A stretch of DNA of 63,764 nucleotides, counting the filler, from Folioceros fuciformis (lineage: Eukaryota): assembly GCA_049999805.1 (NCBI GenBank). It is 4 parts of 3 records of this genome, joined end to end, with 100 filler letters (N's around TTAATTAATTAA, not from the genome) between each part and the next. Parts side by side here need not be neighbours in the genome. Positions count along the whole stretch, not along the records: positions 42,963 to 62,626 come from JBNGIO010006178.1; 3 more parts are not named here. The stretch is one strand, 5' to 3'. Position numbers and translations under genes: made by a program. Numbering within the stretch: the first letter of the stretch is position 1; each line of letters opens with the position of its first letter. Positions 39,971-62,726 of this stretch are shown one piece after another. Below the pieces are notes generated by a model. That model saw nothing but the letters and a program-made list of their open reading frames with translations. It was not told the origin of the DNA and searched no databases.

Positions 39971-40360
39971 AGGACGCTTCTAGGCAAGTTTCCAAGGGCC
40001 TGCTACAGGTATATTTTAACACTTTCTGCATACTGATTCAACGCAGTACGAACGTCAACAGTTATATGTAAATATAATATAATGAAAATACTGTACGTGA
40101 AACATCAACTTGAGCAAAGAAATAGGGCGCACGTGCAACGGTACAAGGAGTGATGAGTACGCTGGCGCACACTCACATCGCGTCTTTCACGTTCTCGCGA
40201 GATGCATGGTTTCGAAGAATATATAGTTACGATGGTAACCATAACGTTGGGATTGCGCTGGCCTACGGCACCCGCCTTGAGATCGTTCCTGGGGCAGTCT
40301 GGACACTTGTATCCTCCTCTCGTAGAGGGTGTTCGGGAGGGAGCCGCCGACGCAGCTGGC

Positions 40361-42379
40361 ATGGCAGGATCAGGTGAATGGAGCCTTGGCGTCGTGGATC
40401 TCCCTTTGTGGAGCATCGTCCTGGCCTTAGGAGTGTTTGCGCTTTTTGCTGTAAGCAGAAAGAGCCGCAATCTCCCACCTGGGCCACCTCCGCTTCCTGT
40501 TGTGGGCAATCTGAACATATTTGCAAACTCCAAATGCCTGCACAGGGATCTTGCCAAGCTGGCTGGCAAGTACGGCGAAATAATGTGGTTATGGTTGGGC
40601 TCTAAGGGAGCGATGGTGGTGTCCTCTCCAGCCCTGGCTCGTGAGGTTCTCAAGAACCAGGATGCCGTGTTTGCCTCTCGCTCCCCGACCCATGCCGCCA
40701 CCAAGTTAACTTTCACGAACATAGCCTTTGCACCGTATGGGCCAGCCCTGCGCCATTCCAAGTAAGGTTGTATAATTGTGCATGTGGATTCAGCCGGAGT
40801 TGGGTGCTGCCGTAATGATCTTTTTGGGCGGGGCTGTTTGCCCACACCTGCAGCTTATGCTTGCAATGCCTTTCAGGAAGGTGATGATCGCAGAGCTCGT
40901 GTCGCCGAAGATGCTTAAGCAATTCGAGGACATAAGATCGCAGGAAATTGCTGCCATGGTTGCAACAATCCGGAGTCACATTACCACGTCCGGGGCGGAG
41001 AGGTCATCCCCTGTCAACATTGCTTTCCTGCTCAACCTTCTGACTCTGAACAACATAACACGTATGGGCATAAGCAAGAAATTCTTTGACTACCAAATCC
41101 AAGACCATACTGGTCCGCAAACGCAAAGCACCTCACTTCCACACCAGGTACACCGCATTTTTTTTCCCCTTCTTTTCAACACGTGTCGGTCTGCTACAGT
41201 GCACTAACGGGCTAGGGTCTCTCCTTTTTCGTAGCTAAGTCTTGCGGTTGTTGGGACTTCAAATGAACAGGGTAATGAGGATAGCGAGTCTTTCGTCAGC
41301 CTCGTGAATGAGGTTTTTACGGTGCTCCCAATCCAGCTGCTCCGGGATTGTATCCCCTACCTGTCCATTTTCGACAACTTGAATCCTGTCAAACACAGGA
41401 TTAGCACGATCAGCAAGCGCCTGGACCGATTCTTGACAGCTTTAATCCAGGAACACCGCGAGGAGTTAAGACAAGACTCACGCCCAAGTGCAAAAGACTA
41501 TGTTGACGTCTTGTTGCAGTTGAATGACGAAGACAAGCTCTCGGACGACGCTGTCAAGGGACAGGTCTTGGTAATAACCCTCAACTGAGAGATACCAGCT
41601 GTGTGGTCCAGTGTAGCAAAATTTCATGCCAGCCGGGTCGCCACCACTAGTCTGACCCCATCTTCGATTTGAAGGACCTAATTCTGGGAGGAAGCCACAC
41701 GACAGCGAGTACCACGCAGTGGGCGATGGTCGAGTTATTGCGGCATCCTGATTACCTGGAGAGAGTAGAGAAGGAGGTGAACTCTGCGGTGAGCAGCGAC
41801 CGGCAGGTTACTGACGCAGATCTTCCAAAACTGCCATATCTCGAAGCCGTGGTGAAAGAAACGCTCCGGTTACATCCAGTTGTGCCTTTACTGATTCCTC
41901 ACTGTTCTCTGGAGGCCACCAAGGTAGCAGGATACGACATTCCTGCCCAAACAGCGGTGTTTGTCAATGTATGGGCCATAACCACAGACCCTGCAGTGTG
42001 GAAGGATTCCCTCCAATTCATTCCGGAAAGGTTTATCGACAGGTACACATCATTCCCAGCTCGATTTCAAGCAGTTGGATTCTTGCAATTGGCCTGTCAT
42101 AACCCAATCACTAACGAAGTTTTGTGCAGGCCTGATCTGGATGTTCGGGGCCAGACCTTTGAGGTTCTACCTTTTGGTTCTGGAAGGAGAATCTGCCCAG
42201 GGACGAATTTAGGTTTACTGATGGTGCAGCTCATTCTTGCTACTCTGCTGCACGAATTTCGCTGGTCTCTGCCTGATGACGTAAAGAAACCTGACGACCT
42301 GGATATGACCGAGAAAGAGGGACTCGCTGTGACCAGAGTTGAACCGTTACATGTTGTGTTCGACATTCGACATGCTTGA
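40361..42379 (+). CDS. CYP71-clan cytochrome P450 (copy 3, intact, atypical I-helix GGSHTT)
   Basis: Exons 40361-40761, 40877-41147, 41271-41570, 41675-42042, 42130-42379. PPGPPP, ETLR, PERF, FGSGRRICPG. Confidence 0.92.
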
Positions 42380-43729
42380 GTTTTGCTGCAAACGTACGGC
42401 CCGTTTCTAAGAGGTTTTCAAATTCTCCATCGATTGGCACATTATGGTACACTTCTCAGGTGGAAACTGTAAAAAGATTTTCTACAGAAGGGATGGATTC
42501 GATACACAAACCTTGCCATGTAAGGGAAAAATTCCGTCCAAGAAGTGGAGAAGTCTCCGCTTCATAGAGAGGTACAAGTAAAAATAAGGTCTAAGAACTG
42601 GAGAAAAATGTGAACATATAATAAAATAATAAAATATTTTCCATTATTTTTAATTATTAACTATGAAATATTACTCTACTTATTAACTTTATAGAATTTT
42701 CTAAAATTTAAAATCAACTCATTGCAACATGTTTGAAAGCAACATTTTGGGTCCCTATGTGAAGATCATTGTGCTAAATAACATTAAAATGGGTTTATTT
42801 TTTATTACTGAAAAAAAAAGATGGAAAATCTATTCCAAAGGTAGAGGAGGAACAACCTAAGCNNNNNNNNNNNNNNNNNNNNNNNNNNNNNNNNNNNNNN
42901 NNNNNNTTAATTAATTAANNNNNNNNNNNNNNNNNNNNNNNNNNNNNNNNNNNNNNNNNNNNAATTGCACATCCAAGAAAGTCCTTCATGATAGTACACA
43001 ATATTGAGGATAGCTAGGCTCCTTTCTAAGAGAACATGGGTTCGATGAAGTGCAAACAAAAGCAACCAAGTTAGCTCTTATTGAATCATATTACTCTTAC
43101 GTAAGGCTTTTATAAAATTAAACGTTACTCTTGCAAAGGATGGTGGGAGTCTCGTGGACATTTAACCAAAGATAGCATCTAGCGAACCAATCGTAAGTGT
43201 TTGGTCAAGCCTTGTGCAGTAGTTTGGGTCATTTGGATCTTGGTTCTTTTTAACTAGCGAAGTGCCTCTTTATGTAGTGAATACATCATTGGACCTCACA
43301 ACAAAAGCACTTCTCTTAACAAATGACGTATGAAATAAAAGGGGTTCCTCTAATCAAAAGAGGGGTTTAATGAAAATCCCATCATCTTTTTTGTTGTTTT
43401 TAACATCTTCTAATTATTTTGTGCCTCTTTGTAAGATCTCAACAATGTTTTTATCGAGTCTCGAGAGAGAAATTCTACTCTAATGTGAATGTCACTAATT
43501 GAACTCACTCTATATGAACACTAAGGATCAGCAAGGATGAATATATTTGGAGCTTCCATGTGGAACGGAAAAGTTTGGTAATCAATCTAGGAAAGTCTAA
43601 CTTGGTTTGTTTTTGTTCAGAACAGTTCGAAGGGAGGCATGTGGAAGGTAGATTTCGCCTTAAGGGTGACAAGGTCCTTTTTGCTGCAAGAGGGAAAGAC
43701 CCTTGGAGGGGGAAAGATAATAAGAAGAA

Positions 43730-43892
43730 ATCTAGAATTGGAGCCAGTCTTACGACTCTGCTCCTCTTGGAGAAGGGCTCTGACTACTTCATTGAGGTTG
43801 ATGGTCGCACATCACCCAGCAGCTACAGCAGCATATGAGTTCCTAAGAGATGCATTCTGATTGGACACAAATGTTTGATAGGAGACAGGGAG
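43730..43892 (-). mobile_element. Old copia element: gag continuation left of the solo-LTR insertion
   Basis: Reads LPVSYQTFVSNQNASLR...INLNEVVRALLQEEQSR, homologous to LPPSYRTFVSNQSSALR...ITLADIIGALLEEESTR in the young copia gag. Confidence 0.85.
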
Positions 43893-44699
43893 TGTGGAGT
43901 GGTTTCTTGCACCAAGAACCACCAAAGGGCCACACTTTCCCTTATTGTCGTTACAGCTTTATGATTCGCTCCCAAGGGAGTGAACTAGCGCCAAGGAACA
44001 CCTACGACTGTCTACTCACACTTCTACCTACCCGCCGGCCTCTAGGCCCGACCACACATACCAACAAAAAGGCCAAAACCCTAGCCTATCTTCAAATCAG
44101 CCCCCAAAACTCACACTCTAGCTCTTCAGTCTTTCAGCTCTTCATGATTCCCACTTTAGTCCTCCCTTCTCCACTTCAATCTTTCACCCTTCACTCCAGC
44201 ACCCACTCCTGCACCTCAGCAACACACTCTTCACTTCACTGCACTTCACTCCAGCTCTCCTTCTCTTTGCTTCAGCTATCCCCCAGAAATTGGGACACAA
44301 CGGCCTCACCCCTTGCAGTCTTCAAGCCTTGTGTGGATACTAGGACTAGATAGCCCTCCTGGCTCACGGTCCCGGCACTTCACTTCAGCTAACCTGCAAA
44401 ACATTCAGCCCTTGCGGATCCGGCCACACGGATCTTGGCAGTCTTGGGATCCTCCACGTTCCCCTAGTGGCAAGGGGAATCAGAACCTTGGTTGAGTCTC
44501 AAATCGGCTTAGCACCCTAGGCCGGGAGTTCTACACACAAGGTCAAGGGAAATCGCACCATAGACCCCCCTCTCAATGGCAGGTCTCCCCCCTCTTATAC
44601 TGCCTAGCCCTCCACCTCTGTCTACTAGGGTTCACCTGAGTCAACTACCTAACCATCTCTCTCTCTGACCTAAACCATCCTACACCCAGTTCTGACCTA

Positions 44700-44895
44700 A
44701 ACCTGACCTAGGTCTAACCTAGACCTAACCTGACCTAAGTCTAACCTAGACCTAACCCGACCTAGGTCTGACCTAGACCTAACCCAACCTAGGTCTGACC
44801 TAGACCTAACCCGACCTAGGTCTGGCCTAGACCTAACCTGACCTAAGTTTGGCCTAGACCTAACCTGACCTAGGTCTAACCTAGATCTAACCTAG
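44700..44895. repeat. 27-bp tandem array (CTAGACCTAACCTGACCTAGGTCTAAC) inside the solo LTR
   Basis: About 7 copies read directly. Confidence 0.9.
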
Positions 44896-46259
44896 GACCC
44901 TAACTCTAGCCTACCCTTGCTTCTAATTGCCCGTTATCCCTTGGCACCATTAGCTGCCCTCTACCCAAAATTATCAGCCCCTCACATCTAGCCAAAATCA
45001 AGGGTGCTTCTCAACACCCCTCACCCCTCTCCCGGATCAGCTCATCCTGCATTCTTCGGAGTCTTCGCCTTCAGGACCCTTCCCTCCATCCTGCCAGTCA
45101 AAATTCATGCCCCGGCAAATCACCATCTAGCACCCTGGAGGAGCACCTTGCAAGGTGGAAATGACATTCCACTATTCCTGTCAACATAACCATCACTAGG
45201 CTTCCCACCACTAGTAGCACCCCTATGCTACAACCTTCGGCCTACAAGCAACTAGGGTTGCTACTAATAGATGGAACACCATGTGCCACTTATGTCCTTG
45301 GTTGGCCACCTTCCAAGCTGTTGGACTGGTCTGTTGGACCGATGCCCTTGAGCGGATGCCCCATGGCGTTGCGTCCTGGAATGGCAAACATCACCCATCA
45401 TCTCGGTAATTAGCATCAGGCTCTCCGCCTGCGGTAGAGAGTCGGTTCCCACCCACAGATGGCAAGCCGTATGCTAATTACGGCCACTGGCTGGCCATGG
45501 TACAGGAAATGCATCACCCCAGTCTGATCCCCAGCAGCCCTTGCTCGTCTCTCCACTAGACTACCTTCGGCGTCTCCATCCATGACCCTAGACGACAGGG
45601 TATCAACTTCTTGAGGCTTCCCGGATCTCTCCTCCTATTCCTCATCTGATTCCAGTCAGGTGCCCCAGCACGCCCTCGGTGCCCGAGACGAGCAACCCTT
45701 TCTCCACCAGCCTCCCTTGATTCGCCTGCCAGCCCAACTGCTTCAGCCAAGTTCCAACCAGCCCGCCACTAGCCTGTTTGGCTTGCTAGATCCGGCCATC
45801 ATGCACCCTGTTAGCCGTCGGCTGACCTGGATGCCACCTGGGCACAACGCCACCCACCTTGCCCATCTGACCTCACCAAGACGAGACCTTCACCAGGCTT
45901 GTCTGTTGTTGTTGCAGATGCTACTAGAGGCCGGCCTGAGCGTGCTTCCCAGCCACAGGGTCCCCGAGTTGAGCAAGGCTGAGGATAATTCAGAGGCAGC
46001 AGCCAGTGGTTTTGCGACTCTGCTTTTTGCCTTCCGTCCAGCCACCAAGAGATCTCCAAAAACGGCCGCGACCCCTCCAGCTCAACCAGCCCCTTTGATC
46101 CAATACTGGCCGCCTGCCAGCCCGCTGCCCCAGCGTCCTACCATCCCTCCTCCGGCCAGGTCCCCTCCGGCTTATCAGGATTTGGCCTCGGCCTGCCTCG
46201 TCTCACCTGCTCGTGCCTGCTCCACCCCCATTTGCGGCCGTCCCGGTGCAGCGCCTACC

Positions 46260-46492
46260 TATAAATTAGGATCGAGGTGGAAGCGAGAGCAAGCAAGAAG
46301 ATGTAGAATGATAATCTTTACTTTGGGCCGTGTGGCCTTAAAAAAGACTAAACGGTTGTGTCCTGTGAGTGTGAAGGTACGGCGATTAGTTTTAGGTCGC
46401 CGACCCTTGTGTATGTCGCTAGGAATCTACTGGTTCCCATCTAAATATGATTTACTATTTATTAATGCTCGATATATATAATTCTACCAATA
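46260..46492 (-). repeat. 3' LTR of the young copia
   Basis: Direct repeat of 52494-52725; adjacent to the PPT (GGCTAAGTGGGAG on the minus strand). Confidence 0.95.
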
Positions 46493-47046
46493 CTCCCACT
46501 TAGCCAGCATTACCCTAGTTAGGACTGCGAAACCACGGGTTAAGAAACCTCGCCGAAGTTAGGTCTCCAGTTCTCTTCATGCCCGCCGCCGCTGTTCACA
46601 GTCCATGGATGAGCTTACAGCTGTGATTCTGGTGCTGGCGCTGTTGCTGTGTGCTTGGATTCTTCGATGTCGCCGGCCTTGCGCAGACTGCAGCAATCTG
46701 GAGAAGGCACACTCAAGATGGCGGCTGGCGCATGGTTTTTTACTACTTGCGCCCAATGCTCCATTCCGATGCCTTACAAACTGCTTCGACAGATTTCATG
46801 TATGCTGGCTGTGACATCACAGATGATGGTCGGCAAATTCTCCGCTATGGTTCGCTTCTTCAGTCTTGCTCTGTAAGTGACTCCTCCTACTACAGCTTGT
46901 GTAGGATGCTTTCTGACCTCATACCTTTGTGTTACGCAGAGCCTTGGTGGCGCTGCACCACATAGATGCCATCCAGAAGGTTTCATCCTTCGTGAAGTGC
47001 CACAGGGTTAGAGTCGAGATGCTAGCTAGGTGGAAGGTTCTGGTAA

Positions 47047-50000
47047 CTAGGACTCTAGGTCCTCAGCTAAGCCCATTGCAGCTGCAAATTTTTCGTGTTT
47101 TTCTCTGGTAAGTGCCTTGGTGAGCAGGTCTGCAATGTTGCTATGAGTGGACACGAACTGTAAGTTTGCACGTCCCTCACTGACCACTTGCCTTATAAAG
47201 TGGTGCTTGATTTCTATGTGTTTTGTTCTGGCGTGCACGACAGGGTTCTGGGCCAAAGCTATGGCTGACTGGTTATCGCTCAGAAGGAGTGTTGGGTCAG
47301 TTTGCTCTTCCCCAAGAGAGGCCAGCAGTTCCCTGCCATGGATAATGTCTTGTGCGGTTGTGGTGGCAGATATGTACTCTGCTTCAGTGGAGGACAGAGC
47401 CACCATAGGTTGCTTCTTACTATGCCATGATATTATTGTTGCCTGTGTCTCATCTTCTCCTAGCATGAGGCAATGGGCAGATATTGACCGGCGGCTGTCT
47501 GAATCAGCCGCCCAGTCGGCATCGCAATAACAGGTTAGTTGCAGCTTGCTTGGTCTTTGCTTATAGAGTAACCCCATCTTTGGTGTACCACCAAGATAGC
47601 GGATACATCTCTGAACTGCTTGCCAGTGTGCTGGTCCATAGTTGGAAAGGAACTGAGAGGTCACACCCACAGCGTGTGAGAGCTCAGGGCGTGTCCAGTT
47701 GCGGAAGTAGATGAGTACTCCCACTGCAGGCCGATATGGTGTCTTTTCCATCTGAATGCGTTCTGATTCATTCTTTGGACATTGCTCTAATGTGAGCTTC
47801 TCACCCACTGCCATTGGTGTTGCAGCAGGTGTAGCATTCTGCATTCTGAATCGTGCAAGGGTCTGGACAACGAACTGTGCCTGATGAATAAATATTGTAT
47901 GCCTTCCCAGGTTTTGACGTATTTGAATACCTAGGAACCAAGTCAGTTGACCTAAATCTGTCATAGAAAACTCTGAGGTGAGAATGCTCTTGACTTTGTT
48001 CATCTGCACTGGGTTGCTGGATATGATGACAGCATCATCGACATACAGTGCTAGGTAAGCTACTCCATTTTTATCATGCAACTTATAGACATTTGAATCA
48101 GCTGTGCTTTGGACGAAACCACACTTCTTTAAGTAGGTATCTATTCTTTTGTACCACTCACGTGGTGATTGCTTTAACCCATACACTGTTTTGATAAGAC
48201 GACATACCTTATTTGGATGCTTTGGGTCAACGTACCCTTCAGGTTGACGCATGTATATTGTTTCCTCCAGGTCGCCATTCAAGAAGGCGGTTTTGACGTC
48301 CATGTGTTGAAGAAGGTAGTCATGCTGGGCTGCTATCGCCAGCAAGGTACGGATGGATGTAGCTCTGACTACTGGAGAGAATGTCTCCGAGTAGTCTAGT
48401 CCTTCAACTTGGCTGTAACCTCGAGCTACCAGCCGAGCTTTGTATCTTGCTATAGATCCATCAGCCGCTTTCTTCAACTTGAATACCCATTTGCATGTTA
48501 CAGCTTTTCGTCCAGGTGGTAAGTCTTCAAGTATCCATGTTTTGTTATCCATTATAGACTTGTATTCTGATTCGATTGCTTCATGCCACTTAGCTTTCTC
48601 AGGTGAGTTCATTGCCTCCTGGTAGGACTGTGGCTCACCCATGTCGATTGGCATGTCTTCATGCACTAGAAAGCTTTGGTATGAAAGTGGAGGAGTGGTC
48701 CATTCATATGGGGACGCAGTGTGATGTCTGGAACTACGGCGAGGAGCTTCCTCTGATGCTGGTTCAGGTTCAGATTCAGGTTCTGAGTCTTCCTCTTGTA
48801 TTGTGGCTTCCGAAGGTGATACACTATTTGTCTCTTCATTTGGACTTTCAGTCTCCTCTTCGACTTCATCTTCTGGGAAGTCAGAGGGTTCTGCATCACT
48901 CTCACTGTCTGTCTGGGAATCTATAGGAGCCACAGGGTGTACAGCCTGTGAGGGAGTGGTACTATGCGATGTGGTTGTGAACTCTCCATCTTCACTTGTA
49001 TCCTCAGGTTCGTTAGGCTGGACATCTAACTTGGGCTGGTTTACTGAAGGAGTAAGTAGCATTTTTTCATTAAATACTACACTTCGGGCATGGATAGTTG
49101 TTCTAGTTTGTGGATCTAGCAGCTTATAGCCTTTTATTCCTTCAGTATACCCCACAAAGACGTACTTTCTTGCTTTATAATCTAACTTCACTCTTTGTTT
49201 CTCTGCAAGGTGAGCATATGCTGGGGAACCGAAGATTCGCAGGTGATTAATTCGCGGCTTGTGAGTAGTCCATCTCTCAAATGGTGTAGCTCCAGTAAAA
49301 GCTTTGGTAGGCAGTCGATTTCTGATATACGCTGCTGTTGCTACAGCCTCACCCCAATAACCCCGTGTGAGGCCCGACACTTTAAGCATAGCCTTGGCTG
49401 CTGACTGAAGGTGTTTGTTGTTCAGCTTGGCCAAGGGATTCTGAGAAGAAGTATACGGTACAGTGAGCTGCCTATGTATTCCAAGTTCTTTGCAGTAATC
49501 CTGGAATGCGCCTGAAATAAATTCTCCACCATTGTCACTGCGCAGGGTCTTCAGCTGCTCTCCAGTTTGCCTCTGGGCAAAAGACACATACTCCTTGAAG
49601 CAGCTAAGTGTTTGGCTCTTATGCCTGAGAAGGTACACTACTACATACCTACTCCAATCGTCAATGAAGGAAAGAATGTATAGTGCACCTCCCAAGGTTG
49701 CAGTTGACATGGGACCACATAGGTCAGTATGAACAACTTCAAGTAGCTTCGTAGCTCTTGTTGGGTTGTCATCTGTGTATGGACTGCGTTGGTGCTTCCC
49801 AAACACGCATGCTTCACAGAACTGCTTCTCTGCAAACTGGAGCATGATCTTCTCTCGGTAAAGTGTATTGCTGGCTATCATTGTCTTCATTTTGTCGAAG
49901 TTGGCATGGCCCAGCCGACAGTGCCATAGCATAGTTGCATCATTGTTCTTGGTCTCTTGACTGACGTGGACTTGTGCACGTGTAAGTGGGAGACCATGCT

Positions 50001-50217
50001 CAGAGTTAATGTTGAGTTGATATAAATCATGGAAAGGTTCTCCTATAGCTAACACCTTGTTCTTGTTTGTAGGGTCAATGACTTGACACTTGAGACCCGT
50101 GAAGGAGACATTCAGAGTGTGCTGTGTGGTCAGCTTACGAACTGACACAAGATTCTTGACCATAGAAGGTACGTGCAACACATCTTCCAACACCAAGGTG
50201 GTGTTGTTACTCAACAT
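47047..50217 (-). CDS. pol: Copia pol (GAG-pre-integrase, integrase, RT, RNase H)
   Basis: 1056-aa ORF with LWHCRLGH, CEACVFGK, HTDLCGP, SDNGGEF, MDVKTAFLNG, LYVDD, CDADWA, TEAEY, ADLLTK. Confidence 0.95.
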   Translation of the reverse strand: MLSNNTTLVLEDVLHVPSMVKNLVSVRKLTTQHTLNVSFTGLKCQVIDPTNKNKVLAIGEPFHDLYQLNINSEHGLPLTRAQVHVSQETKNNDATMLWHCRLGHANFDKMKTMIASNTLYREKIMLQFAEKQFCEACVFGKHQRSPYTDDNPTRATKLLEVVHTDLCGPMSTATLGGALYILSFIDDWSRYVVVYLLRHKSQTLSCFKEYVSFAQRQTGEQLKTLRSDNGGEFISGAFQDYCKELGIHRQLTVPYTSSQNPLAKLNNKHLQSAAKAMLKVSGLTRGYWGEAVATAAYIRNRLPTKAFTGATPFERWTTHKPRINHLRIFGSPAYAHLAEKQRVKLDYKARKYVFVGYTEGIKGYKLLDPQTRTTIHARSVVFNEKMLLTPSVNQPKLDVQPNEPEDTSEDGEFTTTSHSTTPSQAVHPVAPIDSQTDSESDAEPSDFPEDEVEEETESPNEETNSVSPSEATIQEEDSEPESEPEPASEEAPRRSSRHHTASPYEWTTPPLSYQSFLVHEDMPIDMGEPQSYQEAMNSPEKAKWHEAIESEYKSIMDNKTWILEDLPPGRKAVTCKWVFKLKKAADGSIARYKARLVARGYSQVEGLDYSETFSPVVRATSIRTLLAIAAQHDYLLQHMDVKTAFLNGDLEETIYMRQPEGYVDPKHPNKVCRLIKTVYGLKQSPREWYKRIDTYLKKCGFVQSTADSNVYKLHDKNGVAYLALYVDDAVIISSNPVQMNKVKSILTSEFSMTDLGQLTWFLGIQIRQNLGRHTIFIHQAQFVVQTLARFRMQNATPAATPMAVGEKLTLEQCPKNESERIQMEKTPYRPAVGVLIYFRNWTRPELSHAVGVTSQFLSNYGPAHWQAVQRCIRYLGGTPKMGLLYKQRPSKLQLTCYCDADWAADSDSRRSISAHCLMLGEDETQATIISWHSKKQPMVALSSTEAEYISATTTAQDIIHGRELLASLGEEQTDPTLLLSDNQSAIALAQNPVVHARTKHIEIKHHFIRQVVSEGRANLQFVSTHSNIADLLTKALTREKHEKFAAAMGLAEDLES

Positions 50218-50358
50218 AACTGGTACTGACCCGGTGCCCTCTATGTGCAGGCCACTGTCATCTCCAAGAAGAACAAATTAACCGGGTGGAATAGCCCTAT
50301 ACTCAGTAAAGGACTGCTTGCAATGACAGATGTGAGCAGACACACCTGAGTCTATAAA

Positions 50359-51551
50359 CTAGACGTGTTTATTTGACGCATTTGAGACCATGCATACGGC
50401 TAAAATGGTGTTTCCCTTACGCTGTACGACATTTGATGCTGGTGATGGTGCAGTTCGTCTTGGCTTGCCTGCCTTCTTTTTACGACAATCAGCTTCCCAA
50501 TGGCCAGGTATGAGACACCAATTGCAGGGTCCCTTCTTTTTGGCTGATTGTGCTTGTGGTGGATGCTTTTTATAACCAGTGTTAAGATTTGGAGTCCAGG
50601 ACTGCCTTGGTGGAAATCTTTTAGGACCCCTGTTCGCATACAGTGCCCTGGTTGAAGATTCTCCTCGGGAGGTGCCACCTTGGTTCACAGTTCGGGTTGA
50701 CTCTTCCTCGAGAAGAGCTCCAATTATATCCGCCAATGTAATATCAGGTTGTTGGCCTGGCTGAGCATTCTGGGCTACATGGCGCAAAGCAGAACTCTGG
50801 TTGCTTACAAACGTGCGGTAGCTGGGAGGAAGAGAGAGAAGGAGGGCAACTGCTGCCTGCATCTCCGTGGTCCTCGTCCCACTTGAGGTAAGCTTCGATC
50901 GTAACTGTCGAAACTTCACCACATGTTGATCCACTGGTTCATTCTCACGCATTTTACAAGTATAGAACGCTCTTGTAGCTCCAACCAGCGATGAGCCGTT
51001 GCAACTTGATATGTATGTGTGAGTGAGTCCCAAGCTTCTTTTGTATTCTCCACATCTTGTGTATGAGACATCATTGATCCATCCAATGCGGACTGGATCA
51101 CTCCAAGTGCTCTCAGGTCCAGTTTCTCCCAAGCTTCTACTTGTGCAGCGGTCATAGTGGGTCCAGTTGGTTTAGGTACGGTTCCCGGGACAACTCCCCA
51201 CAGGCCATTCTCTTTTAGAATTGTCTGGACTCTAAGTGACCAAATATCAAACTGGGACCCTGAGAAGCGGTCCTTTTCCTTGAAATCTATCTTCAGGTTG
51301 GTAATAACTGGAGTGACCATGTTTACTATGATCTGATTTGCAAGGGTAGCTGCTACTAACTCAGCTTGCTTCTTACGTGCATCTGCTAGTGCCTTCCTGT
51401 GACGTGCTCGCTGAATGCGATCAAGGGCTGGATCTACTCTAGAAGTGCTACTACCTTGTGAAGATGAAGTAGCAAAGAGAGAGAGTGGATATGAGAAATC
51501 AAGTGAAGGTGAGTTGCCTCTTCTTCTACCGCGACTTTTGCCCCTTGGCAT
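50359..51551 (-). pseudogene. gag: Copia gag, frameshifted
   Basis: FSGSQFDIWSLRVQTIL...W, a frameshift near 50980, and zinc knuckle CNWCLIPGHWEADC. A stop at 50359 precedes the protease motif FIDSG. Confidence 0.9.
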
Positions 51552-51559
51552 GTACAGTC

Positions 51560-52477
51560 TTACAAGGCTCTAGCTGGTTCAGGCTCAAGTGATCTTGGTT
51601 GCCTGGTACTGCACAGAAGCATGGCCTGAATCATCTTCATAAGCTGTGTGTCTTGCTCTTGTTCTTGCTGCGAGGTCTGAACAGGTGCGACTGGAATTTG
51701 AATCAGTGCGTCCGAGATATGAACCGGCGTGGGCGTTGCGCCTTCTGAGGTGAAATCCAGACTAGAATTCTTCAAGGAAATCTGCAGCAAATTCTTGACG
51801 TGCCCAGAAAGGGTCCTAATGTGTGTACTAAGACGTGTGATTTCACTGGACAGGTGCACAGAGCGCTGGCGAACTTGTTCTGAGTGATTTCGCAACAGTG
51901 CATCCACTCTGGCTGTGTGTGCCTCAATCAAACCCGACAATCCTGCCACGGAGTCATAACCTGGTGCGGTAAATGCTGTGAAATCATAAGACTTAGAACG
52001 TGCAAGCTCGCGTGCTCTCTGTTCAGAAATTATGCGTGCGTTCTGGATATTTTGTCGACCTTGGCATCTAAGGACAGCAAGAGGATCTGGTTTCAGGTGT
52101 TGCTGACGGAATTGAGTTGTGCGACGCCTATGCTGACGCCTGTGATCTATGTGCGTGTGCAGGGGGTTGAAATTGCAATGTGTTGCAAAGAACCGGTGAA
52201 GATTCTGGTCGTGCACGTCCTCTGGCACACTGCGACAGCCAAGAAAGGGGTCTGCAGGCAAATGCATGGCTCTACCTCGCGCTCTCGGCATCGCGCGCAG
52301 TCAGTCGTAGTAGTGACTGACGGCGCTTGCAAGAAAGGCGTCGGCCATTGCGCCAAATCGGGTAAGAGATACTCGGAGTGCAGAGATTGCTGCATAAAAT
52401 TCTTCGAGGCTCAAATTTCTAATGCAATTCAAACTCTTGCAGATGTTGCTCTCGCGCGGTGGCGACGCATCCTCCAT
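51560..52477 (-). pseudogene. Extra ORF0 between PBS and gag (~305 codons, one internal TGA)
   Basis: ATG at 52477, 4 nt after the PBS, is in frame with the 243-aa ORF through a single TGA at 52301-52303. The stop lies 8 nt before the gag ATG. Heptad segment VHLSSEITRLSTHIRTLSGHVKNL. Confidence 0.7.
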
Positions 52478-52481
52478 TACC

Positions 52482-52493
52482 GCTCTGATACCA
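52482..52493 (-). other. Primer-binding site (initiator tRNA-Met, TGGTATCAGAGC)
   Basis: Exact motif abutting the 5' LTR. Confidence 0.95.
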
Positions 52494-52725
52494 TATAAAT
52501 TAGGATCGAGGTGGAAGCGAGAGCAAGCAAGAAGATGTAGAATGATAATCTTTACTTTGGCCGTGTGGCCTTAAAAAAGACTGAACGGTTGTGTCCTGTG
52601 AGTGTGAAATTACGGCGATGAGTTTTAGGTCGCCGACCCTTGTGTATGTCGCTAGGAATCTACCGGTTCCCATCTAAATATGATTTACTATTTATTAATG
52701 CTCGATATATATAATTCTACCAATA
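52494..52725 (-). repeat. 5' LTR of the young copia
   Basis: Direct repeat of 46260-46492. Confidence 0.95.
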
Positions 52726-54644
52726 CTACCAGCAACCCCGCCACTTCAATTTGATCTGCCATGCATCCTGCTGCCTCCAGACCTAGTTGTCGCCACTCAC
52801 CTAGCTGGAATTCGGCTGCTAGTGTCGGGCTGGTTGGCTATCTGGCAATTCGACCAGACCTGCCGGGATCCGCCAGCAAGTTCGCCTGCTCGTCAGCCAG
52901 ATCCAGTCACCTACAGCCCCCCCTAGATCCTTCCGGGCGGTCAGCTTGCTGGCCCGCCTACTGCTTGCATGCAGCCACCCCCGTCACCTGCTACTAGCCA
53001 GTACGCCAGCTACCGATGCCTACCTGCAGCCGGGCCAGGTTGGCTGCTAGCTGGGCGCTTCAGTCACCGTCGTCCACCAGCCGATCTTCCCCAGCCTGGA
53101 TTCTCCTCGGCCAGCCGGCTTGCTCCTACTAGCAGCCCACTTGGTGCAGCGCCTCCCGCAGATCATTTCTCATCCAACCTGCTGCCTCTGGCCTCTAGAG
53201 CTAGCCAGGCAGGTTTGCCTGCCAGCCGTTGCAAGCCGGCCCCCGTCACCTGACTCGCCCAACTGCTGCCTTGCTTGCTTGCCTGCAGCCGGCCTATGAG
53301 TCCGCCTAGATGCCAAATCGCCACCCCTGGGTGTCTGGCTCCAAAAATCAACAAGCCAGGCCACCTCTCGCTTGCAGCAGGCCTGGCTTGCTTCAGATCA
53401 GTTAGCCAGGCCAGGCGGATCCAGCGCCGCCTCTGCTTGGCGGATCCTCGCCATGGCCCAGCCAGCCCCCTGGCCAGCTAGACCCCACTTGCCGAGGCCC
53501 AACTGCCTTTGGATCTGCCAGCCCCTCCTTCCGCTCAGCTAGAGCCCGGGCTACCCGACACTCAAAGCTTGACTGTTTGGATCCAGCCCACCTGGTCGTC
53601 TGGTTCGGATCCCACGTGCCTGTGCTGCTGTTAGGCCTGGATCCTAACGGCACCGGCCACAGCCTGCCTGGCAATCTGGCAGGCAGCCACCCCACCTAGC
53701 CTGGGCCCGGCTGCTGCTGAGCGGCCGGCCTTTGCTGAGCTAGCCCGACCAAGTCCACCCCTGACAGCCGCCATGCGCTCCACCAGTCTTCCCAGCCCGG
53801 ATCCCCTCCTGGCCTAGGTTCGGGCCTGATTTGCTCCCACCGGCCCAGGTAGCCGATTAGCCCTCCTACCCGCTGAACCCAGCTAGGACCCCGGCTCGGA
53901 TCTGGCCCTAGACCTCCTGCTTGCCACCAGCCCAGGCTGGACTACTGGCTGGGTGGACTAGCCAAGCAGTCAAGTCAATCCTCCTCAGCCACCGCCTGAC
54001 TGCCCTTTTTGCCCCTGGCTCCGGCTACCTCCTACTACTTAGCCCACCTGGATCCCGCCAGCAGCCCCCCCCGGCTGGGCTGCCTGCGACTAAGACGTGT
54101 TGCCCATCAGAAGCCTCTTGACGTTCCAACCTCTAGCAGGCACGCCCTGCTGCTGCTTAGCCGTGACCCCAACCATCTTATCCCCGGCCTACTACACAGC
54201 CCGGCCGGTCCCCTCGTTGAGCTTGGCAGCTAGTCTCATGGCCTGCCGGCCAAGCGCCCTTCGGCCTTGACTAGCGTCTGCCAGCCGGAGCCTATCACCG
54301 ACCCGCCTGGCTGCTAACCCAGCCACCTTTGCTCTCGTGATCCTTGCCTAGCCGGTGCACCAGGAGCAAGGGCCCGTCATCCCCGTCTTTTCCCCCAGGA
54401 ACCCCGACTCGCCCTTCCCACGCACAGTCCTAGGCTTCCACACACATCTAGGCACCCTAGCCAAGAGACCTAGACCCGTGGCCTACCTACCACACATCCC
54501 ACCAAGCCCCTATCGATTCACCGTTAATCTAACCTCTAATCTAACCTAATCTCCTAACCACTCCTCTACGAATTTCAATCAGAAAACCAAAAAAAACAAA
54601 ACTCTACCATTTCCCAGGGATCTACTCGTCATGTGGACTCCACA

Positions 54645-56280
54645 GGGAGGCTGGCTATGAGCTGTGTTGTCATGTCCACCTTCGAGATTCTGCTGTTAAG
54701 AGTAGCAAGCTAAGCCCTGAGGTAGCGCAGCTTCGATACATGTGCCCCAACCGATTCTCCATCCTTCAAACGTAGAGCATGGAAAGCATTACGGGCAGCA
54801 ACCAAGGTAAGAATGTTCTGTACTTGATATGTGTCCGTCAACTGTTTCCGCACTGTTGCTGCTGTATCATGAAACTCCACCTCTGTAACGGTGGATTCAT
54901 CAAGTCCTGACAACAAAATTGCATAAGCTATCTTGTTGCCTTTCTTCCACTTATCAATTTCAGCTTGTGTGGGGGCTGTTCCTCTTGGTGGAACAGGAAC
55001 TGTGGAAGGATCAGGAGTAGACTCGTCGGCATACTCCCACACGTCGCGAGCGTTGAGATTAGCCTTCATACGAGCTCTCCAGCTTTCAAATCTAGAGTGA
55101 GTACCATCAAACCTATCCTTTTCCTTAAATTCTCCAAAATAAACAAAAGTATTGAATGGTACTGGGTTTGATGAACTCGTTGTGACAGGTGGAATAACCG
55201 GAAGTGGTGGACAGGAGTAAAGCCAAGCAAAAGGCTCTGAATCCGACTCACTATCAGAACTATCGCACAAAGACATACACTAGGATAAGTCTTTCCTAGA
55301 CTATATCCTGGCTTTAGCATGCCATTGTTTTGGATTTTATAGCTACTTCTGCCTAGCAGGCCCTCTAAAGGATTTCATAAATAGGTGAACTTAAATTGCT
55401 GGTGAAGCGGTAAGGTATATCTGAAAGGGTATGCCAAACCCTAAAAAACAGAAAAGTCACATGATAACTAACTAACTCGTGCTTTAAACCTAATGTGCAG
55501 GTGCACAAGAGCTAAAGAGGTGCAGATTAGCAACCATTCACAAAACCAAGGCTAGAGATTGCACAGCTAGAAGCCTATCCCAACAAACACCTTGATCAGG
55601 GGCGCCGATTGAGAGTAGAAGACCAAACTTGCACAGCTCCTGACTATGGCAAAATGCCACTTCAAATCTCACCTTGCGCGTCACTGAGATCCAGCGCTGA
55701 ACTAAGAACTAGCACCAGAATTTTGTGGGAACATGAGATTCCAAAAACAGCGCAACTGCAGGTTGCACTTCTGAAATTGGTGCAAGTCTGAAGTGAATTG
55801 TTAAATTGGACAGGTCATTCGTCATTGTGAGCACCTCATGGCGAACTATATCAATGTTTGAAGAAATTCCCACAAAAAACGGAGATGTTGCTGTGATGAA
55901 CCGAGCGAGCATGGACTCAACAACCTCTAGACGAAGCAGAATTCTTTCAATCGCCAGCGGATCAAACAAGAGGTAAGGCTTTTCCTCAGCAATTTTCTGT
56001 CCTCCTCTTAATGGTACAGGCAACATCTCGTCTTCACCGCTTCGCTGCTCAAAACGATTTAGCAAGGGCTAGCGGTGTGCTGCCACCCTGCCTTTGTAGC
56101 TTTTGGGGAGACTGAAACTGCTGCTGTACGGATGCTATGATTTCTCCCGGCACACATCCAATCTCTATTAGCAATCCAGCCACCTGAAAATAGTTCATCA
56201 TGATGCCTTTGAATGTATTCCTCCCTAACAAGAATCCCAGAAGAATTATTCATGAGTGGACGTCCTCAATGGCACCTATA
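54645..56280 (-). mobile_element. Old copia element: gag N-terminal half plus upstream ORF0 relic
   Basis: FKEKDRFDGTHSRFESWRARMKANL...LTDTYQV is homologous to the young gag. Upstream ORFs 55709-56231 resemble ORF0. Confidence 0.8.
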
Positions 56281-56772
56281 CCTCCTGGGCATTTTTCCAG
56301 GGTAGGATGCTAGAACTCAGCTAGCAATTTTTTATTACTACACATGTGTGCAGGTAGGCGAGACTCTGCTATCATTCGAACATCATTCTCAAAAGCTACC
56401 TATTGCTCCTAAAATGTCATGTTGTGGATTAACAAAAGCCTACCTACTATCAGTGCTGAAGAAGCCGCTTGACCTACGCTTGTTGTTGTTCTAAACATCG
56501 TGTTGCTCAATGCTCTTTGCAAAGCAATGGATACACGATGTCGAAAGAAGTATACCATAGAGGAAAGAGGAAGAACAACATTCCTATTACTTTGATAACC
56601 TTTGCATAGTCCTTGATGAACCTTGAAAAGTCTTTGCCCATGGCCCCATGAGTCTTGTTGCTCTAGAGTCTTAAGAGCAAGGGATGAAAATATGCGGTCT
56701 TATAGGGGAGAATACTTAAGGACTTTGGTGGTTGATTGCTAAGTTAGCCTATGGAAAATGATATTTTTGCAC

Positions 56773-56869
56773 TATTGTAATTAATGCTAGCGTGTAAAGA
56801 TGGTATGCCAAAACCAAGTTTATTGTAATTAATGCTAACGTGTAAAGATGGTATGCCAAAACCAAGTTT
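56773..56869. repeat. ~49-bp direct duplication
   Basis: TATTGTAATTAATGCTARCGTGTAAAGATGGTATGCCAAAACCAAGTTT occurs twice. Confidence 0.85.
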
Positions 56870-59800
56870 AGGGTTCATGTCTATTTAGCAAGACATCATA
56901 TCTACAAGGATTGCCACTTAAGCAAAAAGCTAAGGTATAACAAGGTATCTCCATCATAATTAAAACTAACGCATATATGGACAACCTTCACTACATAACA
57001 TGAGTAATCATATAATATAGAAGAATAGATATAAGATATGATTTTTTAACAAAAACGTGAGTTATGGTTGATAGTCATTCCCCGGTCAATGACAATGTAA
57101 GCACACCAATAGTTTTTCTTGTTGAAAGGAACAAAATATCAAGGGAAAAAGAAAAACTTAGAAACCAGTAAGACAAGCTTCTTCAAGGCAAGGCCACATT
57201 GTGTTTATATGAGTATGCCAACACGAAGTAGAGGAGAAAATACCGTAGAAATATGTACTCATCAAGTGGTATGGAGACATAGACCTGTAGAAACAATAAA
57301 GTGGATAACGCTAATTTTAAAATATTGTGTGGGTCGTGAATGAGGAGGTTTGCGAGGAGGGCTTGCACTTGCACGATTGCGATGGAAGCAGATAAGTGTG
57401 GGTGTAAAGCGGTGGAAAGGCGGCATTTCTATTGGATAGTTTCCGTGCGCGGTGCAGGGAAAGGTAGTATATTAAAATAGGCGGCACGCTTCATGAGTGC
57501 AATGAAATAAGAAAATTTATAGGCGCGACTTAGTTGACAACAGCTATTTCGAAAAGCGGCGTGAGCAGAAGGGGTTTTGAACGATTTTGTGAGGCGAGAG
57601 AGCCGTACGTGTCCAACGAGGAGAGGTAGAACTGGAGCAGATAGGCGCGCCCGAGGTGAAGCGATGGTAGCTGCAGCTTTTACACCGTGTACACAAGCAT
57701 CTCTTCCTTTTCCTGTCCATGGATCTGGACCGAGCGAGATTCGCATTCGAAAACGGATTTTCTTAGAGAAGAAAGAAAGTCTGAGAGTACAGGCAAGCAG
57801 CGGTAGTATAACAAATGCATAACAGAGGTGCAAGGTGGGATCCCTCCACTCCACAGCAGGCCGTCTCCTTGGGTGATGATCACCTTACCATGGTAACACT
57901 GGTGAAGTGTGTACACGCATGTCTCGAGTGTACGTGCCTTCCCTGTGCAGTGTGCCGGAATGTCAGCACTAGGCAGCGCTTGCAGGCAGGCCAGGCGGCC
58001 AGCCAGCCAGCCCATCAGTGATGAGTGAAGGATACGGTCGGAGGGTCCAGCCAGGCTGTGTGATCTCGCCTTCTCCATTCCCATGAGCTGCAGGCAAACT
58101 TGAGAGAGGGATTCCTCAGATTCGTTGGTTCGGCAATGAATGAGTCGGACGCGCAACAAGGTAGCTAGCTAGATAATGCGGGGCGCGGGTATACATGCTT
58201 GCACCCATCATGGGTTTCAAGCTGGCCCCGCAACCACGAGCTGATGCTGCTGCGTTGATGAGACGTCGAGCCTGCACGTCCAGCACAGATCGACGGAAGG
58301 GATCAACAAGAGCAGGAGGTGTGATGACAGGAGAAGCAGAGGAAGAGGCACACACCGAGGATCTCCCTCCTGGGTCACGGAGGTAGAGTCCGTGGAGACA
58401 CAGACAGAAAGGCATTCAAGCGAAGCGGCACCGCACTCAACAGTGCATTGCACTGCACCGGCTATGATTGCACGCAAAACACACCAACTGTTGAAGCAAA
58501 AGCTGCTGTACATTCGGCACGCAGGCAAATGAGCTGTGAAGCGGCATACACAGCATGAGGGAGACGCGGGTCCTTGCGCCTCACCTCCACACCTAAGCAA
58601 TGCCCCCTCTCATGGCAGACAGGCAGGAGCCAGCCAGCCAGGTCCGGATCAAGACTGCATACACAAACTACAGTACACAAGGAAGACTCACACAAGAGGC
58701 CAGGCAGGCTCGAAAGCGGGTGAAAGAAGTGCAGGCAACGAAGGATAGGCAAGGCAAAGCAGGAAGGAAGTGAAAGCGGGTGGGGTAGTAGCGGAAGAGT
58801 AGTAGTAATGTCACCTCACTATCAGCCATGAAATTGGGAGCTGCATCAGATGCAGCAAAAAAAAATTTACTACCACAAATGAATGAATGGATGCCTTGCC
58901 TACCTTCAGAGTCGCATATAAAAAGTTCCTCAATCAGCAGCCAGAGCAAGGAAAAGTTATAAGGCCTGCCACACTTTGTAAGAGGCACAACAAACAGGAG
59001 AAACTCACGTGTGGTTGCACACACTGTCTGTCTGACTACATACATCAAAGATCTGCCTTGCCTTGCCTTGCCTTAGCCTTGCTCTTGCCCCTGCCCCTGA
59101 TCCTGTGTTTCAGGGCAGGGCGCCTACGCACCGGGTTCTAACACAAGCCTCAAGTTGAGCTGCCATGCCACCAGCTCTGGCTCCAACAGTTGCGATTTGA
59201 GCGACCGACTGTAACTGTGACTGAGGCTGAGACTGGTGAGAGGTTAAATCAACATCCATCGGTTGCGTGCACCAGCTTGGCTCGGATGGCATCCATTGGC
59301 GCACCTTGAGAAGAGTAAATCCCAGATGCGCTCACAGAGAGCGTGATAAGGGAGAGCCACACTAATCATCTCTAACTCAATATTCCATGGTGCGTAAGCG
59401 CCCTTAGCAGCACTGGAACTGAAACTGCAAATCACGAGAGAAGAAGGAAAAAAATGGAAAAGACTAGAACTACACTACGCTAACAGGTCTACCTTGGCTG
59501 GCTGGTTGGCTGGCTGGTTGGCTGGCTACTCACAATCAGTCAGAGAAGGAGGCACTCATCCTCTCTCTGTGCTCGTTAAAGAATGCCGAGCGACATGGGC
59601 AACATCATACTTTACACACAGAGTGATCATCTCGACTCATCTACCTGCCTGCAGGTGTCCAATTTTGCAACTGCAGGAGGTGCAGGCTTAATGGTGGAGT
59701 TCGTTCTACATAGCTATCTACTGACTACTGCACTAGACTAGAGACCTCTGCGTCTACCCTGGCAAAGGGAGGGAGAGAAGGAAGGGAGGATAGGGATAGC

Positions 59801-60113
59801 AAGATACATAGAAAAGGCGGGGCGGGGGGGCGAGGCGAGGCAAGGTAGGTGGGAAGAAATACGACGGGAAAGGGCTGAAGCAAAGGCGGAAAAAGGGAAG
59901 AGAAAGGGAAAAAAGGAGGAACGACAGGAAAGGGAAACAGGAAGCAGCAGCTGGTGATCTATACTCTTCTCCAGCGGCAGAAGCAGCAGCCGCAGGAAGT
60001 GCAGAGCGGCTGCCACTGCAACGGAAGATACTCGGGTGGAATGCTGGGTACTGGTGGGAGGGAAGGTGGGGAGGACGAGGTAGAGGGAGGGGAAGGAGAA
60101 GGAGGAGGGAATC

Positions 60114-61274
60114 TTACAGCTTCTTGCCCAGTGTGTGCTTGTTGTTGTGCATCCAGACCTTGAGTACATGGCGCTTGACGCCGACATCGGCACAGAATTG
60201 CTGCACTGCCGCCTCGTCGTGCTTCTGGATCTTCCAGCCCAGCTTGTCAGCGAAGGTGCACATCTTCTCCTTTTGCTCGGTGGAAAACTTCGTACGGAAG
60301 CGCTTCTTCATGGCGGCAGGGGAGGCGGAGCCGAGGCCGCCCTCCTGGTCATCGGAGTCGGCAGGCCCGGTGTTGAGAGCCATGAGGATGGGCGCCGGTG
60401 TGCGGGACGGCATCATGCCCAGGGTGTTTGGCAGCGGGAGCGGGGAGGGCGTGCTGAGGCCGCCCACGCCTCCTCCTACTGGAACCCCGCCTCCACCTCC
60501 TGCTCCTCCTGCTCCGCCACCCACGCCCACAGGCCCCACGCTACTGCTCCGCTTGCGATCCTTGGCCCGTAGCCCGGGCGGCAGGTGGCAGTCGCAGGCC
60601 GGCTGCTCCCCCTCCACCTCCCGCCTGTGGAAGTTGCGGTGGCAATCGCAAGCAGCACACTTGAGAGACTCCAACGTGCCCTCTTCTCCGCTGGGCATGA
60701 ATTCGCCACAGCCGTCGATGGCGTGCCCGCCCATGCTAGCTGCGTGGTTCTTGTGGCATTCCCGGTACCGCACAGCCTTCTTCTGTCCCCCACCTACTGC
60801 TGCTGCTGCTGCTCCTCCAGCCCCACCTCCTGCTGCAACAGCAGGAGCAGCAGCGACGACCACTGCGCTTCCTCCTCCAGCCACCACAGGAGGAGGCGGC
60901 GCAGGAGATACACCAACGACTTGCACTCCTCCAACTCCGACTCCCCCCCCCACACCCCCCCAGCCCACAGGCCGGCCCCCCACCACCCCGAGCCCGGGGC
61001 TGGGAACCAGCGCCTTGCTGGGCGTATTGCTGCTACTGTTGTCCAAGCTAGCCAGCGGGCGCAGCAGCTGCTGCTGCTGCTGCTGCTGTACTCCCACTCC
61101 GACGCCGACGCCCGCTCCTACCCCAGCGGTGCTGGCATTCATGTCGTCGGCGCCTGCGGTGCCCGTGCCGTTGCCGCTGGTGAGCATCTTGAGCTTGGCG
61201 CTCTCGTGCAGGCTGGCGTAAGAGGAGCTGATGGGCATTGGCATCTCTCCGCCTCCGTCGTGTCCCAAATCCAT
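60114..61274 (-). CDS. ZHD: ZF-HD (zinc finger-homeodomain) transcription factor
   Basis: Zinc finger [23 protein letters not shown]...[16 protein letters not shown] and homeodomain [16 protein letters not shown]...[10 protein letters not shown]. The likely ATG is at 61274, downstream of a predicted 5'UTR intron (61317-61503). Confidence 0.95.
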
Positions 61275-62726
61275 AGTCGTGGATGTCCCCGTGGTGCCTC
61301 TGTCGGACACTCCTCCCTGAAAAACAAAAGCGAGCAAGCCGGGCAGGCAGGCGAGCACAGCACGGCACGGCACGGCACGACCCCCTCTCTACCAGTGCGA
61401 GAAGCAGCAGCAGCCTGTCCTACTCCGTCGCCTCCCCTGCTCCCACCACATATCTCCACTTCACTCCTCCCCTTTGCTCTCCGCTGCACTCCAGCCCACT
61501 CACCCTTCCCTCCCACGGGGTCCTTCACTGGCTGTCCCTCGCAGTTGCAGTGTCAAACGGTGAGATGGAGCCCCCGGATCCTGAGAGCTTTGCCACCAAG
61601 CAGGAGGCGGCCAAGCGCCCACGACGCCGTCATGGCTCCAATGCAGGAAGGGTCGGGCAGCCACCAAAAATTCCCCGCCTTCTTCCCGCACCAACCGCCT
61701 GCCAAGGAATACCAAAAATGGCGCAGAAGCAGCATGAGAGCGACGCTGAAATTGAAATCGCAGTCCCCGGTCCCTATCCGGATTTTTGAATCACGTTGCC
61801 TAGCAGTCACACGCACCCACGCATACAGACAGCGAGCAAGCCAAGCAGCAAAAGACAAACAAGGAGCGCAAACAGGGACACAAAAATGCGAAATGCAAAG
61901 TGCGAGGCAAGGCAGGCAATGCGGCGAAGGGGCAGGCAGGCAGCAGGAAGGAAAGCAGGCAGGCAGGAGGGCAAGGCGGATTTGAAGCACGAAAGCGAGC
62001 AAGGTGTAACGAGGAGGAGGAGGAGGAGCAGCACAAAGCGAGTAGGAAATCCAGAGAAGAGCCAAGGCAAGGCAGAGCAGGGCGCGCGGGGTTTACTTAG
62101 AAGAAGAGAGTCGAGACGGATGACACCCAACGGAGAGCCTGGAGGAGTAGAGGGTATTAGCGGCGGGCGGCGGGGCGGGGGTAAGCGTAAGCAAAGCAGA
62201 CGGCTGAGTGGAAGGCAAACAGAGGATGAGGCAAAGAAAGGTGGAGGGCATAGACAAAGCCAAACCCGCGTCGGGAGCTAAGCTGGGCCCAAAGCCCGGC
62301 GCTGAAGGCGAGAGTCAAGGCAAGGGGAGGGGCAGGGGGGGCTGGGGCAGAGGCAGAGGCAGGTGCAGAGCGGGCGCGGGGCGTGGGGTGGAATGGGAGT
62401 GGGCGCTACGGGACAGCAGACAGAGAGTTGATGAGAGCAGCGGCCAGCAGCAGGCCGCAGCGCAGCAGGAGGTCCGAGGAACAGGAGGTGTAGGGGCAGG
62501 AGCTGGGCACTGGGCACTGGGCACTGGGCACTGGACTGGGCAGCAGAGCGGCTGGAGCAGAGCGGGGAGCAGCAGGAGCGAGGAAAGGAGCGAAAGGTGA
62601 GCGGGGCGGGAGAAAGAGATGAGATGNNNNNNNNNNNNNNNNNNNNNNNNNNNNNNNNNNNNNNNNNNNNTTAATTAATTAANNNNNNNNNNNNNNNNNN
62701 NNNNNNNNNNNNNNNNNNNNNNNNNN

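Follow-up and report, generated by a model that had tools for sequence, protein, structure and literature searches.

We analyzed a 63,764-nt stretch of Folioceros fuciformis DNA (assembly GCA_049999805.1; hereafter, the window), which joins four parts of three records with 100 filler letters between successive parts, and in which positions 42,963 to 62,626 come from record JBNGIO010006178.1. The window contains a ~6.5 kb long terminal repeat (LTR) retrotransposon of the Ty1/copia type, located on the minus strand, as are all features described below unless stated otherwise. The subject of the analysis is an additional open reading frame (ORF), denoted ORF0, that occupies the leader of this element between the primer-binding site (PBS) and gag and is a candidate extra gene. 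The two LTRs, a 238-nt 5' LTR at 52494-52731 and a 3' LTR at 46260-46498, are repeated in the same direction and differ by 6 mismatches and 1 gap column in a global alignment of 239 columns. The PBS (52482-52493) directly follows the 5' LTR and is an exact 12-nt match to TGGTATCAGAGC, which we take to be the complement of the 3' end of the initiator tRNA-Met. This assignment agrees with the use of complete tRNA-Met as the primer in most copia groups, as stated in a survey of plant LTR retrotransposons (PMC6317226).

The gag-pol region of the element is spread over three frames. The first gag frame (50916-51551, 211 amino acids) matches positions 2-92 of the Pfam profile Retrotran_gag_2, along with DUF4219, and the second gag frame (50359-51132, 257 amino acids) matches positions 84-169 of the same profile, so that the gag domain goes on after a frameshift. 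The third frame (47047-50217, 1056 amino acids) is pol, consisting of a protease remnant, integrase, and reverse transcriptase, with Pfam matches to Pol_BBD (partial), gag_pre-integrs, rve, SH3_retrovirus, and RVT_2. The copia-type gag and the location of the integrase domains ahead of RVT_2 assign the element to Ty1/copia; in the libraries searched, the closest pol is 66% identical and the second closest 42%. With at least two frameshifts that split gag-pol and a stop codon within ORF0, this copy is defective. A target-site duplication (~5 bp) was not seen on direct reading, the 5 nt outside each LTR being unlike; this may reflect decay or recombination and leaves the Ty1/copia class unchanged. 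The element is flanked on the left by a GC-rich stretch with a 27-nt tandem repeat array on the plus strand (44673-44919, eight overlapping 85-nt copies at 27-nt spacing) and on the right by a stretch that is likewise GC-rich and of low complexity (52732-54700); the two flanks may be halves of one older sequence between which the copia element inserted. Farther to the left, a short gag-like fragment (43692-43895) shares 36% identity with the second gag frame across 75 residues (E = 6e-7), with no pol nearby.

ORF0 (51560-52477) starts at an ATG at position 52477, 4 nt past the PBS, and comprises 305 codons followed by a TAA (51560-51562), with the gag ATG (51551) located 8 nt beyond this stop, in another frame. 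The only interruption is a TGA at codon 59 (52301-52303); the unbroken part, counted from the first ATG past the TGA, spans 243 codons (51560-52291). This layout, described in the first-pass annotation of the sequence, was confirmed by direct reading, and the long sense ORF that it postulated across the whole leader was borne out as well, with coding-like statistics.

In the foremost alternative to a gene, ORF0 would be open by chance within a long untranslated leader, with the 930-nt interval devoted to RNA functions, such as packaging, dimerization, and control of translation, rather than to a protein; long untranslated leaders are said to occur in some plant copia families (BARE, grapevine). 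Several properties of ORF0 argue against this explanation. The longest stop-free run, 246 codons, was reached in only 3 of 5000 dinucleotide-preserving shuffles, and over the leader the ORF0 frame contains 2 stops, the TGA and the terminal TAA, compared with 16 and 11 in the other two sense frames. Moreover, the open frame fills the leader nearly exactly. This openness is not due to tandem repeats, because the sole repeat found in ORF0 is 19 nt long (period 6, 51651-51669). In terms of codon usage, expressed as log-odds per codon after training on pol, the ORF0 frame scores +0.04, whereas the five other frames score between -0.11 and -0.35; on the same scale, the gag frames reach +0.19 and +0.06. 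The base periodicity at codon positions is similarly gag-like, with a chi-square of 16.45 for ORF0 and 16.8 per 305 codons for the second gag frame, and it exceeds the values of all 13 nearby non-coding control windows (4.3-9.8). Finally, a search for structured RNAs over positions 46000-57500 detected no Rfam family.

The predicted product likewise speaks for a coding sense frame. The AlphaFold2 model built from the single sequence of the 243-residue unbroken part has a mean predicted local distance difference test (pLDDT) score of 58.9, with 82 of the 243 residues at 70 or above, and contains helices at residues 70-99, 115-175, and 208-229 (model numbering). In contrast, a 204-amino acid antisense ORF used as a control yielded a mean pLDDT of 35.0 and a single residue at 70 or above. 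The most prominent predicted feature is a 61-residue helix, corresponding to ORF0 residues 177-237 (51767-51949), for which the mean pLDDT of 10-residue blocks is 79-89 over the core. Within this helix, a six-frame scan identified an amphipathic heptad run (51788-51853) of seven consecutive hydrophobic a/d positions, with four leucines spaced seven residues apart, such that the sequence has the a/d heptads within a long helix that are expected of a coiled coil; the run is, however, short (~3.5 heptads) and was matched in 508 of 20000 composition-preserving shuffles (2.5%). A basic stretch, HRRQHRRR, is located at residues 112-119 (52121-52144), and the entire protein is basic (isoelectric point of 9.5). 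Thus, the ORF0 product is predicted to be largely helical or disordered, and, going by the model, the arginine-rich stretch together with the leucine heptads of the 61-residue helix would suit self-association or binding of nucleic acid, in particular RNA. The proposal that ORF0 encodes a conserved coiled-coil protein is accordingly sustained with respect to the long helix, predicted with confidence, and its leucine heptad run, but not with respect to the conservation of such a protein (see below). Two other interpretations of these sequences were discarded. The antisense ORF (51884-52498) is not a plausible gene, given that it has no Pfam family, is poorly modeled, and crosses the PBS into the LTR. 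Membership of ORF0 in the bZIP family was rejected as well: there is no Pfam family at E<=1, and the arginine-rich stretch lies ~90 residues ahead of the heptad run instead of adjoining it.

Weighing against the coding interpretation are, first, the limits of the statistics. The periodicity of ORF0 is borderline when compared with random sequences that are themselves free of stops, 5.6% of which reach 16.45 (p = 0.056), and so falls short of significance at the 5% level. In addition, the frame was chosen from a very large scan, in which a 1-in-1700 chance frame would sometimes turn up. The RNA fold at the ORF0-gag junction is ordinary (z = -0.38), which weighs against an untranslated RNA leader as well as against a gene, and the leader contains 13 ATGs where ~14 would be expected by our own estimate from its length, so that, with upstream ATGs not depleted, there is no sign of design for leaky scanning.

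Second, none of the searches yielded a relative of ORF0. No Pfam family was matched at E<=1 by the 305-, 243-, or 57-residue forms of the protein, including the plant mobile domain (PF10536), Athila ORF-1 (PF03078), and Transposase_28 (PF04195) families. A word-index search of 5.8 billion proteins produced 2888 candidates, none of which scored; phmmer found no protein at E<=0.001 among 1.84 billion representatives; and none of the 380 pattern matches in metagenome contigs or the 10 in viral contigs was confirmed. The corresponding matches for gag, 328 in metagenome contigs and 37 in viral contigs, were not confirmed either. When ORF0 was compared with 120 copia polyproteins, both gag frames of its own element, and the gag fragment of an older copia element in the window, the best match had E = 6.8, and the possibility that ORF0 is a duplicate of gag or pol was rejected on this basis. 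The ESM Atlas provided no usable match, and the recognition value of ORF0 in this resource, 1774, is below the 2300 reached by 91 of 100 proteins of known families. The negative outcome of these searches is weakened by the poor coverage of the lineage, as indicated by the identities of the two closest pol sequences.

Third, the sequencing runs point to a scarcity of ORF0. The stretch is contained in three DNA runs from one sample, and in one of these (X1) the summed contig depth is 27-60 over ORF0 compared with roughly 50-335 over most of gag-pol; this several-fold lower depth implies that there are few ORF0 copies of at least 80% likeness. A near-identical 1001-nt contig spans 51523-52511, from which it departs at 8 places, with 12 further gap letters; the ORF0 differences listed from it, 4 of the 8, include 3 synonymous and 1 nonsynonymous change and none at the TGA codon, an excess of synonymous changes that is anecdotal at this number. 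A contig from a sister family is ~86% alike in the N-terminal part of gag, and its alignment ends at 51530, ~20 nt inside gag, while the contig itself extends for ~620 letters more. The sister family therefore appears to possess a long leader as well, with faster divergence than in gag, a point in favor of an untranslated leader. Run X4, which we guess to be RNA, contributed 7 short pieces, 6 of them below 90% likeness and none over ORF0. Over the element (46500-52740), run X3 shows C>T changes at 500 places and G>A changes at 546, compared with 4-40 places for each other kind of change; this run resembles a bisulfite library from the same sample, from which the methylation state of the element could be derived.

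On balance, we consider a real or recently real coding sequence to be the likelier interpretation of ORF0, each of the tests being of moderate strength. Most likely, the element that integrated at this site had an intact, protein-coding ORF0: by a rough estimate of our own, a single stop gained over 915 nt is consistent with a frame still open at the time of insertion, given the LTR divergence of 6/239. A chance frame in an untranslated leader falls below an even chance in our assessment but has to be taken seriously. To the extent that the sequence allows a judgment, ORF0 would be a family-specific extra ORF with relatives undetectable by the searches made, and the full interpretation, namely, an extra ORF in forward orientation between the PBS and gag of a low-copy plant Ty1/copia family that is represented here by a dead copy, appears to us about evenly balanced between right and wrong.

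A different question is whether ORF0 is a coiled-coil accessory gene conserved across a copia lineage, as proposed in the first-pass annotation, with the leader frames of the older copia element as its diverged homolog. The older element is represented by a gag fragment (54710-55279; Retrotran_gag_2, E = 1e-15), which has 33.7% identity to the younger gag across 104 amino acids; the two gags are related and have their best outside match (P0004) in common. Two overlapping frames, of 119 amino acids (55709-56068) and 66 amino acids (56049-56249), do exist upstream of the old gag, neither with a Pfam family, but the further claim that they occupy the same position as ORF0 is not established, because they stop ~430 nt short of the old gag ATG and a search allowing up to 2 mismatches revealed no PBS for the old element. 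The 119-amino acid frame contains a heptad run of nine positions (55790-55876), identified by the same six-frame scan, which was reached in 289 of 20000 composition-preserving shuffles; heptad runs of such length number just 23 in the 127,524 six-frame residues of the window. An amphipathic a/d run is hence present in both leaders, and the two can be set in register with 9/40 identities. Furthermore, the LxxQG and EQRxxE motifs are found in both elements, with spacings of 33 and 34 nt by direct reading. A ~45-nt direct duplication in an AT-rich stretch upstream of the old frames (56780-56880), with a like short motif near 55440, may derive from repeats in the LTR or leader of that element.

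The gapless alignment of the two leaders, originally made by eye, can thus be reproduced, with its identities and both motifs, but its score does not rise above chance. A tblastn comparison of ORF0 with the old copia found no match at E<=10. The best per-frame local score between ORF0 and the old frames was 37, equal to the mean of the shuffles (37.0 +/- 4.6), 47% of which scored at least as high. When the old frames were joined by read-through, with an X at the break, five scoring schemes gave p = 0.32, 0.18, 0.038, 0.11, and 0.094, so that one of the five favors relatedness at the 5% level and the other four do not. A frameshift-tolerant protein-to-DNA alignment, which requires no chosen break point, was matched or exceeded by 31-83% of shuffles, including those that keep the hydrophobic pattern, and the real score did not exceed the mean of the shuffles in two of three schemes and, in the third, lay no more than half a standard deviation from it. 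Significance against shuffled coiled-coil controls had been set beforehand as the test able to refute the alignment, and against the hydrophobic-pattern shuffles the alignment failed it. The old leader also lacks codon periodicity (5.1-8.7), a protein search with the 119-amino acid frame yielded 4 candidates and no match, and the two motifs were selected after looking at the sequences. The heptad run shared by the two leaders is therefore best seen as a weak hint, noticed after the fact. With no relative of ORF0 in any search, a sister-family contig that loses its likeness at the start of gag, and an alignment to the old copia no better than shuffles, the proposed conservation in a copia lineage lacks support; we regard a conserved accessory gene as improbable, and we think equally little of the chances that ORF0 and the old leader frames share a common ancestor.

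The same observations can be extended into a bolder conjecture, that of a deep-branching plant copia clade in which a coiled-coil gene located between the PBS and gag evolves fast but is conserved in function. The old element would then be a decayed homolog, recognizable by the in-register heptads and the two collinear motifs, and translation of gag would depend on reinitiation 8 nt past the ORF0 stop. If true, such a clade-wide gene would be the copia counterpart of Ogre ORF1, combined with coupled translation in a plant retrotransposon; we consider this scenario a long shot.

Returning to ORF0 as a family-specific extra ORF, the translation context is compatible with its being read first. 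Going downstream from the PBS, the ATG of ORF0 is encountered first; it has a G at both -3 and +4, whereas the gag ATG has a T at -3 and a C at +4 and is preceded by all 13 of the leader ATGs, of which 7 are in frame with ORF0. ORF0 would accordingly form the first long cistron on the full-length RNA and would be translated first by scanning ribosomes; gag would then be produced by reinitiation 8 nt past the ORF0 stop, by internal entry, or from a separate RNA, and the ORF0 product, if the structural model is a guide, could self-associate or bind nucleic acid. That ORF0 is instead an N-terminal extension of Gag, reached by a programmed frameshift or split off by mutation in this copy, is very improbable, even though the ORF0 stop and the gag ATG are 8 nt apart and further frameshifts are present in gag-pol of this copy: gag lies in a different frame from ORF0, stops in the gag frame at leader codons 298, 300, and 303 of 310 confine any join to within ~7 nt, direct reading found no slippery heptamer at the junction, where the RNA structure is ordinary, ORF0 matches none of the 120 polyproteins, and none of the six longer pol relatives (P0002, P0004, P0022, P0056, P0052, and P0104) has an ORF0-like N-terminus, gag beginning within ~100 residues in the five of these that have gag and the surplus length being internal or C-terminal.

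Other features of the window are separate from the element. A 424-residue, intronless-looking frame (60114-61388) contains a ZF-HD dimerization domain (Pfam E = 9e-31) and, by eye, a homeodomain-like C-terminus, and is rich in Gly/Ala/Pro runs; its presence identifies the host as a land plant. Cytochrome P450 copies are arranged in tandem on the plus strand (25371-25457, 29236-29313, and 40157-42379), with Pfam p450 matches at 40157-40765 and 41651-42379, and a helix of the IFDNLNPVKH type was encountered three times in the heptad scan. Near the end of the window, a second exact initiator tRNA-Met PBS (63568-63579) precedes AT-rich sequence and a frame of 166 residues (62671-63171) with no Pfam family; this PBS may mark the start of another LTR element, broken by runs of N. 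Stretches of N (594 in the window) interrupt the sequence at 62630-62740 and 63405-63414 and make the features across them unreadable.

Extra ORFs are a recurrent feature of plant LTR retrotransposons. Neumann et al. (2019) surveyed these elements for extra ORFs (eORFs) of at least 250 codons and classified them by position and orientation, with one of the classes being eORF-5'F (PMC6317226). According to that survey, eORFs are present in 582 Ty1/copia elements and form 45 mutually dissimilar groups; 19 of the 45 groups are the 3' ORFs of SIRE elements, and the eORFs lack common domains, so that many independent acquisitions or very fast evolution are possible (PMC6317226). A review describes extra ORFs upstream or downstream and in either sense, most frequently between pol and the 3' LTR (PMC7264820). 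The view in the first-pass annotation that extra 5' ORFs are known mainly from gypsy elements thus needs softening, considering the number of Ty1/copia elements with eORFs and the existence of the eORF-5'F class (PMC6317226). ORF0 resembles eORF-5'F in being located on the sense strand, upstream of the polyprotein and inside the element, and resembles eORFs in general in having neither a conserved domain nor similarity to other groups. It differs in length, with 246 open codons (243 from the ATG) against the 250-codon cut-off, reaching 305 only with readthrough of the TGA; the cut-off is narrowly missed because of the one stop that ORF0 has in this decayed copy. The rule that excludes eORFs lying in tandem repeats (3 or more monomers over more than 150 bp) leaves ORF0 in place, its only repeat being the 19-nt one.

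Retrosat2 is a Ty3/gypsy element. Its ORF0, in rice, has no counterpart in other organisms and diverges far more than the enzyme-encoding ORF among homologous elements (PMC3485330). The ORF0 described here is likewise situated ahead of the enzyme-encoding ORF and yielded no relatives in sequence searches. However, Retrosat2 has LTRs of more than 3.2 kb, is abundant across its genus, and has homologous elements in several genomes, whereas the present element has 238-nt LTRs, is of low copy number, and has no known homologous ORF.

The extra ORF of Ogre sits upstream of gag. Ogre ORF1, Athila ORF-1, and the extra ORFs of Retand resemble ORF0 in providing coding capacity beyond gag-pol; as listed in the survey, these ORFs feature the plant mobile domain, Athila ORF-1, and Transposase_28 domains (PMC6317226). 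They belong, however, to Ty3/gypsy non-chromovirus elements, and part of them have Pfam domains, whereas ORF0 has none at E<=1. The best-known extra ORF of Ty1/copia elements is the eORF-3'F, or "env-like" ORF, of SIRE, which, in the survey, is heterogeneous (the 19 groups mentioned above) and of unknown function (PMC6317226). In contrast to that ORF, which is located downstream of pol, ORF0 lies between the PBS and gag and is unlike any of the 120 copia polyproteins or their extensions.

As a single decayed copy without relatives, for which the conservation seen by eye fails the shuffle test, ORF0 leaves the current picture of these elements unchanged. Judged by its sequence and position, it would be an unexceptional representative of an already known kind of extra ORF in retrotransposons. 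If it is a real gene, it would constitute one more unrelated family among the dozens of extra ORFs gained or invented by plant LTR retrotransposons, the functions of which are almost all unknown, and its tight fit within the leader, with 4 nt separating it from the PBS and 8 nt from gag, would make it a compact case for the translation of gag behind a long upstream cistron.

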